From Escherichia coli (GTDB lineage: Bacteria; Pseudomonadota; Gammaproteobacteria; Enterobacterales; Enterobacteriaceae), in the NCBI RefSeq assembly GCF_003334315.1, contig NZ_QOWR01000102.1: a stretch of 3,928 nt of DNA; one strand, given 5' to 3'. The position numbers were made by a program, and so were the translations under genes. The notes beneath the pieces are model-generated. The model had not been told where the DNA came from and did not search any database. It saw only the letters and a program-made list of their open reading frames with translations. This document shows, piece by piece, positions 815 through 3,928 of the stretch. Each line of letters starts with the position of its first letter. The first letter of the stretch is position 1.

Positions 815-2281
815 TTACCTGTGGTCCGGAAGAATCAGAGGCTGCGGTTTCAGACTGTCTGCCGGCACATTTTTCTCTCCGTTAAAAACCATAACGGGTT
901 CATTATCTTCGTCTGTCAGCGGATTGAATGGCAGTATATTTTCGGTACGAATACCGGTCAGCCACTGAAAAATGCCTGCGAAATGACGGGCACTGATTTT
1001 TCTGCTGACGGACTGATGAGACGTGATGTCACTGGCGGTAATAATCAGGGGAACGCTGTAGCCTCCTTGTATATGGCCATCATGATGAACAGGATTAGCA
1101 CTGTCGCTGACCGACAGACCATGGTCAGAAAAGTAAAGCATGGCAAAATGACGGGAGTGCCGGCGAAGGATACCATCAAGCTGACCGAGAAAGTTATCCA
1201 GTTTACTGATGCTGGCGAGGTAACAGGCAATCTTTCGGGGATACTGCTCCAGGTAATGATTCGGCCAGGAGTTAAGTCGGTCACACGGATTCGGATGAGA
1301 GCCAATCATGTGCAGGAATATCACCTTCGGAGAGGATTTATCCGCCAGTGCACGTTCTGTTTCCTGTAACAACAACATGTCATCCGTTTTACGGGAAGCA
1401 AAGCTGCCTTTCTTGAGGAAAACGGTATGCTCCGCATCAGAAGCAATAACAGAGATGCGTGTATCATGCTCCCCCAGTTTTCCCTGATTGGATATCCACC
1501 ATGTGCTGTATCCTGCTTTTGCTGCCAGCGCCACCACGTTGTTGCCGGAGTCAGGGTTCTGCTCATAGTCATAAATCAGTGTCCGGCTCAGGGAAGGTAC
1601 GGTACTGGCTGCTGCCGATGTATAGCCGTCAATAAATAAACCGGGAGCCGTATTCAGCCATGGTGTGGTTGGCACGGGATAGCCATATACCGACATATAA
1701 TCCCTGCGCACACTCTCACCAGTAACGATAACAATCGTGTCATACAACGGTGTTCCCGGCAGGATTTTCCAGTTGTCAGCCCCGTGCTGACTCAGTTGTT
1801 TATAACGCTGCATTTCACGCAATGTGTCAGTTGTTCCCACAACAATTCCTTTAACCATCCGCAACGGCCAGCTGTTTACAGAGCATAATACGAATAGCAG
1901 CAGTGCCAGCCAGTTACGGTGACCGCGGTGGTGTGTCCGCCAGAAAATCACCATGAATACCAGAATCGCGGCACTGACCAGAAAATGATAAACAGGAATC
2001 ATCCCGGTAAACTCTGCAGCCTCATCAGCCGTGGTCTGCAGCAACGCGACAATAAAACTGTTGTTGATTTTACCGTACGTCATACCCGCAGGCGCATACA
2101 GTGCACAACAGAACAGAAATAACAGCACTGTAATGGATGTGAGGGTATTTCTGTGTGCAAGGAGAAGAAGGAGAAACAGAAGCAGCACATTTCCTGTGGC
2201 ATTCTTCTCAGTGTATCCGCATGCAATTGTGATTATTACGGAAATGGATTTGCCCCTATATTTCCAGACACCTGTTATCAC
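815..2281 (-). CDS. Phosphoethanolamine transferase family membrane protein (YhbX/OpgE/EptA-like, sulfatase-fold), 5'-truncated by IS2 insertion; likely pseudogene
   Basis: 488-aa ORF with an N-terminal hydrophobic region (several predicted TM segments, e.g. [47 protein letters not shown]) followed by a periplasmic-type catalytic domain. Motifs align with the EptA/MCR pattern as I recall it: [13 protein letters not shown] (nucleophile position), [12 protein letters not shown] (cf. HQMGNHGPAY) and [10 protein letters not shown] (cf. MLYVSDHGES). The first 12 codons (2245-2281), including a GTG start, lie inside the IS2 right inverted repeat, so the native N-terminus (an estimated 50-100 aa including TM1) is missing. 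Native sequence spans 815..2244. Confidence 0.8.
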
Positions 2282-2285
2282 TTAA
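2245..2285. repeat. IS2 right terminal inverted repeat
   Basis: TGGATTTGCCCCTATATTTCCAGACACCTGTTATCACTTAA matches the ~41-bp IS2 right inverted repeat recalled from the canonical element, with one difference I can see (C for T at 2271). Confidence 0.75.
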
Positions 2286-3161
2286 CCCATTACTGGCCTG
2301 CTGCCGCAGATATTCCCGTGGCGAGCGATAACCCAGTGCACTATGCGGATGCCATTCGTTATAATGCTCGAACGCCTCTGCAAGGTTCTTTGCTGCCGTT
2401 AACCCGTCTGGTTTAGGCATGATACTGATGTAGTCACGCTTTATCGTTTTCACGAAGCTCTCTGCTATGCCGTTACTCTCCGGACTCCGCACCGCCGTGT
2501 TCTTCGGTTCAAGCCCCAACATCCGGGCAAACTGCCGTGTTTCATTAGCCCGGTAGCATGAACCATTATCCGTCAGCCACTCTACTGGAGACGCCGGAAG
2601 CTCGTTGCCGAAGCGGCGTTCCACCGCTCCCAGCATTACGTCCTGTACTGTTTCACTGTCGAAGCCGCCCGTAGTGACTGCCCAGTGCAGTGCCTCACGG
2701 TCACAGCAGTCCAGCGCGAACGTGACTCGCATTTTTTCTCCGTTATCACAGCGGAACTCGAACCCGTCAGAGCACCATCGCTGATTACTTTCTTTCACGG
2801 CCACTTTGCCAGTATGTGCCCGTTTCGATGGCGGTACAGCGGTTTTTCGCTCAAGCAACAGCGCATTCTGGCGCATGATCCGGTAAACACGTTTGGCATT
2901 GATCGCAGGCATACCATCAAGTTCGGCCTGTCTGCGAAGCAGCGCCCATACCCGACGATAACCATACGTGGGCATCTCTCCGATAACATGGTGTATACGG
3001 AGAAGCACATCCGTATCATCTGAGTGACGGCTGCGGCGACCATCTTTCCAGTCATCGGTTCGTCTGAGAATTACGTGCAACTGCGCACGCGACACCCGGA
3101 GACAACGGCTGACTAAGCTTACTCCCCATCCCCGGGCAATAAGGGCGCGTGCGCTATCCAC
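2256..3161 (-). CDS. insD: IS2 transposase OrfB (InsD), DDE integrase-like catalytic domain
   Basis: 301-aa [37 protein letters not shown]...NRCLEI, near-identical to the canonical IS2 InsD I recall, with scattered substitutions. GTG start at 3159-3161 immediately after the A6G slippery site. In IS2 this frame is normally expressed as an InsC-InsD fusion by -1 frameshifting. Confidence 0.9.
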
Positions 3162-3484
3162 TTTTTTGCACGCCCGTATTCAACAGCTTCTTTAAGGAGT
3201 TCATTTTCCATCGTTTTTTTGCCGAGCAGGCGCTGGAGTTCTTTAATCTGCTTCATGGCAGCAGCAAGTTCAGAGGCAGGAACGACCTGCTCTCCTGCGG
3301 CCACAGCAGTAAGACTTCCCTCCTGGTATTGCTTGCGCCAGAGAAATAACTGGCTGGCTGCCACACCGTGTTGCCGGGCAACAAGGGAGACCGTCATTCC
3401 CGGTTCAAAACTCTGCTGAACAATAGCGATCTTTTCCTGTGTAGTACGCCGTCTGCGTTTCTCCGGTCCTAAGACATCAATCAT
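3119..3484 (-). CDS. insC: IS2 transposase OrfA (InsC), helix-turn-helix DNA-binding protein
   Basis: The listed ORF (3119..3529) begins with 15 codons inside the IS end. The canonical InsC start is the internal Met of [47 protein letters not shown]..., placing the start codon at 3482-3484 and giving 121 aa. It overlaps insD by ~43 bp, as in IS3-family elements. Confidence 0.85.
3161..3167 (-). promoter_or_regulatory. Programmed -1 ribosomal frameshift slippery heptamer (A AAA AAG) at the insC/insD overlap
   Basis: The minus strand reads GCAAAAAAGTGGATAGC; the A6G heptamer sits in the insC/insD overlap where IS2 and other IS3-family elements are known to frameshift to make the OrfAB transposase. 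Confidence 0.55.
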
Positions 3485-3529
3485 CTGCTCTCCAATGACT
3501 AGTCTAAAAACTAGTATTAAGACTATCAC

Positions 3530-3851
3530 GGTAGTGACTCCAACTTACTGATAGTGTTTTATGTTCAGATAATGCCCGATGACCTTGTCATGCAGCTCCA
3601 CCGATTTTGAGAACGACAGTGACTTCCGTCCCAGCCTTGCCAGATGTTGTCTCAGATTCAGATTATGTCGCTCAATGCGCTGAGTGTAACGCTTGCTGAT
3701 AACGTGCAGCTTTCCCTTCAGGCAGGATTCATACAGCGGCCAGCCATCCGTCATCCATATCACCACGTCAAAGGGTGACAGCAGGCTCATAAGACGCCCC
3801 AGCGTCGCCATCGTGCGTTCACCGAATACGTGCGCAACAACCGTCTTCCGG
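3530..3851 (-). mobile_element. IS1-family fragment (right inverted repeat plus 3' part of insB), reverse orientation, inserted into IS2 and itself interrupted at ~3851
   Basis: 3530-3552 GGTAGTGACTCCAACTTACTGATAGTG is the IS1 terminal inverted repeat (canonical GGTAATGACTCCAACTTATTGATAGTG, 2 mismatches). The following ~300 bp is the reverse complement of the IS1 insB 3' region with roughly 5-10% divergence from the canonical IS1 I recall. Similarity stops abruptly after ...CAACCGTCTTCCGG (about 3851). Confidence 0.85.
3545..3851 (-). pseudogene. insB: IS1 insB, 3' fragment (C-terminal ~100 codons of the InsB part of the InsAB' transposase)
   Basis: Translation ...[101 protein letters not shown] matches the InsB C-terminus. 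The frame is open to the IS1 break at ~3851 with no start codon; insA and the left inverted repeat are absent from the window. Confidence 0.8.
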
Positions 3852-3928
3852 TGTCACGAACGGTGCAATAGTGATCCACACCCAACGCCTGAAATCAGAT
3901 CCAGGGGGTAATCTGCTCTCCTGATTCA
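3852..3928 (+). mobile_element. Probable left terminus of an IS21-family element (IS100-like), continuing beyond the window
   Basis: The sequence from 3852, TGTCACGAACGGTGCAATAGTGATCCACACCCAACGCCTGAAATCAGATCCAGGGGGTAATCTGCTCTCCTGATTCA, begins with the TGT typical of IS21-family ends and contains repeated GATCCA motifs consistent with the multiple terminal repeats of that family. It matches my recollection of the IS100 left end, which continues into a ribosome-binding site and the istA start just beyond the window. This is recalled from memory, not verified. Confidence 0.45.

Follow-up and report, generated by a model that had tools for sequence, protein, structure and literature searches.

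How did parts of IS2, IS1 and IS100 come to lie end to end beside a phosphoethanolamine transferase gene of Escherichia coli, and can their order of arrival be read from the junctions? The preliminary description of the locus proposed a three-layer nest, in which IS2 entered the transferase gene, IS1 entered IS2 and an IS21-family element entered IS1. The names of the elements, both junctions, the loss of 46 bp from IS2 and the late arrival of IS100 all stand; the simple nesting and the distal position of the missing halves do not, on the evidence of sibling strains, and the order of IS2 before IS1 is not established. With good confidence, we read the stack as an IS graveyard at the joint of two E. 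coli tRNA-Phe island modules, produced by several events of different age and not by three clean nestings. One module would consist of the integrase and the phosphoethanolamine transferase, the other of a BREX defence cluster.

Architecture of the contig

The window analysed here is the entire 3928-bp draft contig QOWR01000102.1 of assembly GCA_003334315.1; the same contig was found in two samples. Three elements are piled up in its right half: an IS2 that is truncated, a 322-bp remainder of IS1, and IS100, of which only the first 77 bases are present (Table 1). The elements and mechanisms of the stack are all known already, and the pile-up is ordinary. The assembly broke here as a result of the pile-up, as had been anticipated: the whole contig terminates 77 bases inside IS100, owing to the repetition of this element in the genome, and the length of the terminal piece is probably the k-mer overlap (k = 77) at the repeat. 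No RNA families were found in an Rfam scan, and a promoter and terminator scan of 3400-3928 gave nothing notable.

Table 1. Features of the 3928-bp window.
Coordinates	Strand	Feature	Basis
1..492	+	P4-type tyrosine integrase gene of a tRNA-Phe genomic island, 3′ part	Left contig end; NCBIfam integrase domain match
815..2244	-	Phosphoethanolamine transferase gene, first 70 bp absent, cut at the right end of IS2	Colinear with intact genes
2245..3529	-	IS2 (IS3 family), standard positions 47-1331	Gap-free alignment to complete IS2 copies with 5-bp duplications
2256..3161	-	IS2 orfB, transposase part, 301 aa, intact	NCBIfam NF006918 (IS2 TnpB), 704 bits against a cut-off of 597, residues 1-301 of 301
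3119..3484	-	IS2 orfA, 121 aa, intact	NCBIfam NF006928 (IS2 TnpA), full length, 276 bits against a cut-off of 229
3530..3851	-	IS1 remnant, right inverted repeat tip GGTAGTGACTCCAACTTACTGAT and 3′ part of insB, 322 of 768 bp	IS1A positions 1-322 at 94.7%
3852..3928	+	IS100 (IS21 family), first 77 bp, istA-proximal terminus	Right contig end; 77/77 identical to IS100

In the siblings the full integrase gene adjoins tRNA-Phe, at pheU in two (L007 and L008) and at pheV in three (L005, L006 and L015, the last being strain ZH48). The transferase remnant has colinear counterparts in L001 and L015, where intact genes of 1500 bp are annotated as phosphoethanolamine transferase; position 2244 of the window corresponds to 6244 of L015, in which the intact gene ends at 6314. 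The PF00884 and CptA-like matches of the remnant fall under the family cut-offs.

Numbered from its right inverted repeat (IRR), a complete 1331-bp element aligns with the IS2 segment over positions 1-1285, with no gaps. The reference copy (L001 10141-11471) is annotated as IS2 and flanked by the 5-bp duplication CTAAT; complete copies elsewhere have the target duplications CTAAT, ATGGT and AATCG. Identity over the 1285 bp is 95.4% to the L001 copy and 99.5% to the copy of ZH48. The right inverted repeat tip TGGATTTGCCCC is present at 2245, and the A6G motif for programmed -1 frameshifting lies at 3161-3167 on the minus strand (CTTTTTT when read directly). The segment thus resembles the IS2 of E. 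coli (IS3 family, IS2 group) in its 95-99.5% identity, its orfA/orfB arrangement with A6G and its correct right tip, but it is single-ended: the outer 46 bases of the left end, TTATTTAAGTGATA..CCAGTCTA, are missing, so that only one inverted repeat was found. The identity of the element, the 46-bp loss and the junction at 3529/3530 had been given correctly to the base. Judged from its sequence, the IS2 of the window is a truncated copy with intact reading frames, which would be unable to transpose as a unit because one end is gone.

The adjoining segment is 94.7% identical (E 3e-143) to a 768-bp IS1A copy over positions 1-322 of the latter, numbered from its IRR tip, which agrees with the earlier identification of IS1 and with its junction at 3851/3852. 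Over these 322 bp it agrees with IS1 (IS1 family) in the right inverted repeat and in insB, of which the 3′ part is present, but only 42% of the element remains, and it lacks insA, the left repeat and the site of frameshifting. The IS1 open reading frame covers positions 138-199 of the 199 of the IS1 transposase profile, and the IS1 piece of the window is dead. A complete 768-bp IS1 with insA, insB and both repeats was found neither in the window (322 bp) nor in the siblings (442 bp). The segment is a rare minority variant, for which the best match reaches ≥99% in just 26 of 9416 records, and is 100% identical to L003, L004 and L005.

Sequence beyond the stack in siblings

If the elements were simply nested, the missing parts of IS1 and IS2 would lie beyond IS100. 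In the IS100-free siblings IS1 stops at position 442 and is followed by a 1222-bp ISKpn34-like element, a 65-aa open reading frame and brxL-pglZ-pglX (BREX). Neither the IS2 left end nor IS1 443-768 was found in the fetched sibling flanks, which reach 8-12 kb past the stack in L003 and L005. L003, L005 and L006 were also free of additional IS2 or IS1 fragments and of a displaced IS2 tip with a 9-bp duplication. The distal halves were thus not where they had been expected, and simple nesting is rejected because the siblings contain what the preliminary description had itself named as evidence against it, other DNA in place of the remainders. At the ISKpn34 joint the terminal TG is absent, there is 3-bp microhomology and no 4-bp duplication is present; by these features it looks like a deletion joint. 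The ISKpn34-like orfA is very widespread (7307 blocks). An old event involving this IS3-family element would have cut IS1 at position 442, and the left half of IS1 and the IS2 tip would have been lost.

Origin of the IS2/IS1 joint

The right tip of IS1 at the joint is intact and abuts IS2 exactly. The same joint, with IS2 lacking 46 bp, occurs in L003 and L004, where the right end of IS2 has a different neighbour. Between these two and the window there are 26 mismatches, all within 2271-3349, and none in the next 502 bp (3350-3851), for which the chance at the observed rate is 6e-6. This mosaic pattern points to recombination inside IS2. As the joint occurs with differing DNA at the right end of IS2, homologous recombination within IS2, or a rearrangement of its right end, would have followed the formation of the joint. 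The order in which IS2 entered the transferase gene and IS1 then entered IS2 is therefore not established. The joint itself would be old and would have arisen once, with IS2 losing the outer 46 bp of its left end through the right tip of IS1.

In two genomes (L029 and L031) a spacer of 66 bp separates a complete IS2 from an IS1 with seven of the eight differences from IS1A seen in the window; a third (L032) has this IS2 and the spacer but no IS1. In total, at least 12 genomes have the rare IS1 variant in the same orientation at a distance of 66 bp from an IS2 that is complete. By strain, LD27-1 shows IS2 with the spacer, 2016C-3878 is among those with IS2, 66 bp and IS1, and the joint lacking 46 bp is carried by NMBU_W05E18, ESBL 15, the L005 group and the strain of the window. 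IS1-promoted adjacent deletions are classical IS1 behaviour. The joint resembles them in that the end-point lies exactly at an intact IS1 tip and a plausible undeleted precursor is found in other genomes, but the IS1 here is truncated. We slightly favour, over insertion, an origin of the joint by an IS1-promoted adjacent deletion of 112 bp from the arrangement of complete IS2, 66 bp and IS1. The fuller account, in which IS2 served as a recombination hub for swapping tRNA-Phe island modules (integrase and transferase against BREX) and the joint is the fossil of the 112-bp deletion, with three stages surviving in sequenced genomes (IS2 alone; IS2, 66 bp and IS1; the deleted joint), is tentative, with a chance that we place just short of even.

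IS1 may instead have inserted directly into IS2, with its tip placed between IS2 positions 46 and 47, the distal half of IS1 and the IS2 tip being lost later through a deletion linked to ISKpn34; this is a serious possibility, which we rate somewhat below an even chance. Before that loss, the 9-bp repeat GACTATCAC would have followed IS1, and then the 46-bp IS2 tip. In favour of insertion, IS2 is rich in AT at its left end; plasmid CP070113 has an independent IS1B joined to IS2 at a distance of 13 bp, which suggests that IS1 favours this target; and the deletion-like features of the ISKpn34 joint fit the later loss. It would, however, reduce to coincidence the genomes with the 66-bp spacer, which offer a one-step deletion route to the IS1 tip.

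Plasmid CP070113 was also considered as a sharer of the joint and was rejected; its joint is 13 bp off, involves IS1B and is independent. It is the rare IS1 variant and the geometry, and no traced phylogeny, that incline us to deletion over insertion. Among L029, L003 and the window, the IS2 bodies are 21-26 bases apart, and descent is thus argued through recombination.

Right end of IS2 and the transferase gene

The right end of IS2 may have reached the transferase gene without inserting into it. A resident IS2 located 1.5 kb away, as in ZH48, could have deleted the intervening DNA, which comprises a gene for a tia-like outer-membrane protein and an IS600 fragment. The order in ZH48 is an intact transferase gene, a truncated outer-membrane protein gene, the IS600 fragment and a complete IS2, which has the same orientation as the copy in the window, is close to it in sequence and lies 1553 bp further out. 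No two of the contexts examined share the right flank of IS2, and a duplication is seen in none. The IS2 of ZH48, however, has its own intact 5-bp duplication (ATGGT) and is a separate simple insertion; in the window, where IS2 has lost its left end, no target duplication can be read. We regard such a deletion as rather unlikely. A search of 5426 complete E. coli genomes for the reciprocal junction, the IS2 left end joined to GGAAA and the 5′ end of the transferase gene, gave no match in one piece.

The IS1/IS100 joint

Window 3852-3928 is identical (77/77) to L014 3606-3682, starting at the terminal TGT of IS100, so the IS21-family, IS100-like end placed at about 3852 is indeed IS100 from base 1. 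The reference copy (L014 3606-5559) is a complete element of 1954 bp, annotated with istA and istB and flanked by a 5-bp duplication. IS100 belongs to the IS21 family and is known from Yersinia pestis, Shigella and ColV plasmids; copies matching the 77 bp at ≥99% were found in 1046 plasmid records.

The exact TGT terminus of IS100 is joined to its IS1 target. L005, a contig found in seven samples, and L006 are 100% and 99.94% identical to the window over 638-3851 and lack IS100; at the exact site they read CCGG followed directly by AGCCTGTCAT.., and IS1 runs on uninterrupted. These siblings bear out IS100 as the youngest layer. A 32-aa open reading frame across the IS1/IS100 joint is recorded on QOWR01000102.1 alone, and the joint had no one-piece match among the 5426 complete E. 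coli genomes and no exact match in species-representative genomes. A recent transposition private to the strain would thus have placed IS100 within the IS1 remnant, separating positions 322 and 323 of IS1. For a simple insertion the far side would read ..CCGTCGTTGACA-TCCGG-AGCCTGTCATACG.., after which would come IS1 for 120 bp, then the ISKpn34-like element and BREX; equally, the far junction with its 5-bp duplication would read ..CATCCGTCGTTGACA-TCCGG-AGCCTGTCATACGCG... We infer this arrangement for the far side of IS100 in the strain of the window. The open reading frame predicted at the far junction is absent from the records, which is weak evidence as a short frame or contig was possibly not called or deposited.

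The joint could instead be a chimeric edge of the assembly, or mark a deletion or rearrangement associated with IS100 that left unrelated DNA on its far side; we consider either improbable. In favour of such readings, the joint can be seen from one side only, the contig stops after exactly 77 bp of IS100 and the predicted far-side frame is not on record. Against this, the break falls exactly at the true first base of IS100 (TGT), known from a copy that has its target duplication, where a random chimera would rarely fall, and the identical contig occurs in both samples. Clean insertions of IS100 into IS1 are also known elsewhere: in ColV plasmids, as read from L014, IS100 is nested in IS1 with a 5-bp duplication. 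The orientation relative to IS1 is the same there as here, whereas the site is IS1 position 365 in the plasmids and 322 in the window, which holds only 77 bp of IS100. Simple insertion predicts that the right end of IS100 runs into TCCGGAGCCTGTCATACG.

History and significance of the stack

Three clean insertions, with the displaced halves and duplications following in order beyond IS100, would explain why every junction sets an intact element tip against an internal position of the previous element and would suit the ability of IS100 to nest cleanly in IS1, but this history is very improbable given that the IS100-free siblings carry a fourth IS and BREX in place of the IS2 tip and IS1 443-768, that the complete E. 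coli genomes searched lack the reciprocal IS2-GGAAA-transferase junction and that the IS2/IS1 joint also stands beside a different IS2 right flank.

As the analysis of the stack shows, the phosphoethanolamine transferase gene is inactivated here. The stack explains the contig break; beyond such bookkeeping it matters little. The strain-private IS100 is a potential typing marker. Where elements recombine, the order of IS events is unsafe to read from junction geometry alone. The position of the stack next to BREX in the siblings fits the known role of insertion sequences in shuffling island modules.

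Composition of the stack

Phosphoethanolamine transferase and integrase genes make up the left part of the contig, and three IS pieces make up the right. The sequence is the complete contig QOWR01000102.1 of draft assembly GCA_003334315.1 and is present in two samples. In relatives with a complete integrase, the integrase/transferase module adjoins tRNA-Phe (pheU or pheV). Directly 3' of the integrase stop codon (493-530) is a GC-rich hairpin (CCCGGGCAAATGCCCGGG) with a T-run after it, probably the terminator of that gene. The integrase-transferase spacer holds additional DNA in two sibling contigs, L005 (11645-12889, against 638-645 in the window) and L006. 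The insert is a 1.2-kb IS3-family element in L005; that in L006 is larger, with a reverse transcriptase gene of the group II intron type among its contents. The alignments flanking these inserts overlap by 8 bp.

Features of the contig and their match to complete reference elements
Feature	Position	Strand	Remarks
P4-type integrase gene, 3' part	1-492		leftmost
Intergenic stretch			between integrase 3' part and transferase gene
Phosphoethanolamine transferase gene	815-2244	minus	lacks the first 70 bp of intact 1500-bp genes
Three IS pieces	2245-3928		right of transferase
IS2 piece	2245-3529		first 1285 bases of reference IS2 from the right inverted repeat, gap-free
IS1 piece	3530-3851		IS1A positions 1-322 from the right repeat tip, 94.7%
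IS100 piece	3852-3928		first bases of IS100 from the terminal TGT, 77/77 identical

The pieces were aligned to complete copies from annotated genomes: an annotated 1331-bp IS2 flanked by a 5-bp duplication, CTAAT (genome L001, 10141-11471), a 768-bp IS1A (L001, 15704-16471) and a 1954-bp IS100 with annotated istA/istB (L014, from plasmid pAPEC-O2-MS1657-1, 3606-5559). The element names and both junctions of the preliminary description proved right to the base. IS2 is 99.5% identical to the copy of strain ZH48 and lacks 46 bases (TTATTTAAGTGATA..GGCCAGTCTA). Its orfA and orfB are intact, with TnpA and TnpB above the NCBIfam curated cut-offs and the A6G frameshift motif at 3161-3167. The remaining IS1 ORF aligns to no more than the final third of the IS1 transposase profile.

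IS100 as the most recent layer

The same transferase::IS2 fusion ORF occurs in eight contigs of public assemblies, two of which reach past the stack. These are L005 (a 320-kb contig, found in seven samples) and L006, which are 100% and 99.94% identical, respectively, to window 638-3851. Directly past 3851, both run on in IS1 (CCGG and, across the breakpoint, AGCCTGTCATACGCG) and thus provide the empty site for IS100. No one-piece match to the IS1/IS100 joint was found among complete E. coli genomes or by an exact scan of species-representative genomes, and the short ORF across it is recorded on the window's own contig only. As the joint was found nowhere else and the siblings have the empty site, these comparisons identify the IS100 event as recent and strain-specific, in keeping with the proposal that IS100 arrived last.

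The breakpoint is at base 1 of IS100, as expected for transposase action. ColV plasmids carry a clean IS100 insertion at IS1 position 365, flanked by a 5-bp duplication (TTTAG) and oriented relative to IS1 as it is in the window; in pAPEC-O2-MS1657-1 (L014, 3241-5967), this site in IS1A is 43 bp from that of the window. In about 100 E. coli records, IS1 and IS100 pieces together account for 80% or more of the junction query; among the matches listed, 25 of 25 are plasmid-sized, most with the same 182-bp spacing. IS100 may favour this part of IS1 as a target. By analogy with these insertions, the far side of IS100 in the window strain should read GTTGACA-TCCGG-AGCCTG.., and a lookup of the predicted far-side junction ORF returned none on record. 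The right edge of the window is an assembly break within the repeat; we infer that an IS100 piece of exactly 77 bases fits a de Bruijn overlap of k=77 at a repeat node.

An IS2/IS1 joint that predates its present neighbours

Window 2245-3851 is colinear, at 98.4%, with two complete genomes, L003 (strain NMBU_W05E18) and L004, in which the right end of IS2 adjoins an IS3-family fragment and not the transferase. All 26 mismatches fall within 2271-3349; the next 502 bp, across the joint, have none (chance 6e-6 at the observed rate). The IS1 variant is rare, with a best match of at least 99% in 26 of 9416 matching records. Since the mismatches are confined in this way, the IS1 variant is rare and colinearity extends to genomes with another IS2 flank, the sequences indicate that the joint arose once and was later linked to different IS2 right halves, most likely by homologous recombination inside IS2. 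This undermines the proposed order, in which IS2 entered the transferase first and IS1 then entered that copy. The right flank of IS2 differed in all four distinct contexts examined, none with a duplication there, and the reciprocal junction that would mark simple insertion of IS2 into the transferase is absent among complete E. coli genomes. Confident ordering is possible for the IS100 step only. Just upstream of the same stack in NMBU_W05E18 (L003, 5599-9726), an ISEcp1-blaCTX-M-15 unit is located within an IS30 copy; the same IS30 is intact in strain ESBL 15.

A series of three parts is present in at least 12 complete genomes of E. coli (e.g. L029, 1276-2801, and L031): a complete 1331-bp IS2, then 66 bp derived from the 3' end of a WYL/YafY regulator gene, then an IS1 right tip. 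This IS1 has the orientation seen in the window and shares seven of the eight differences of the window copy from IS1A. Strain LD27-1 has identical IS2 and spacer without IS1. These arrangements look like a precursor series, from which loss of the 66-bp spacer together with 46 bp of IS2, ending exactly at the IS1 tip, would give the window's joint. A deletion ending exactly at an IS1 tip is the classical signature of IS1-promoted adjacent deletion, and we lean slightly towards this origin. Direct insertion of IS1 into the AT-rich IS2 end is slightly less favoured; on its side is an independent IS1B/IS2 joint in plasmid CP070113, only 13 bp from the window's junction. There (L002, from NZ_CP070113.1, 2378-3633) a complete IS1B abuts an IS2 fragment that also has an internal deletion, its right tip being joined to approximately position 803. 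Where the 66-bp spacer is present (L029, 1-1275; L031, 4014-5680), the IS2 right end is about 0.9 kb past dcuR and lacks a target duplication, which suggests that the region underwent a large deletion on its cad-pheU side.

Beyond IS1

In the IS100-free siblings and in L003 and L004, IS1 stops at position 442 and is joined to a 1222-bp ISKpn34-like element of the IS3 family, followed by a 65-aa ORF and then the BREX genes brxL-pglZ-pglX. In its lineage the stack has four layers. The joint of this fourth element is irregular: the terminal TG is missing, and 3 bp (ACC) are common to the element and IS1 (L005, 7095-8320; L003, about 12500-13720). In contrast to several intact copies elsewhere, it has no 4-bp duplication here. 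These features suggest that the joint arose by deletion and not by transposition. Searched with high sensitivity, L003, L005 and L006 contained no further IS2 or IS1 fragments; the 46-bp IS2 tip and IS1 443-768 are deleted. Simple nesting, with the missing halves distal to IS100, is contradicted, the siblings having the ISKpn34-like element and BREX where the remainders were expected; the preliminary description had itself given such an outcome as grounds for refutation. The type 1 BREX cluster (brxL, pglZ, pglX and a DUF262 gene; L005, 1-6873; L003, 13940-24121) directly follows the stack, which thus marks where the integrase/transferase module meets a defence module.

The preliminary description is thus corrected to four layers, with the inner halves gone, only the IS100 step orderable with confidence and the right edge an assembly break. 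The stack itself is real; known elements and mechanisms account for it, and it is ordinary of its kind.
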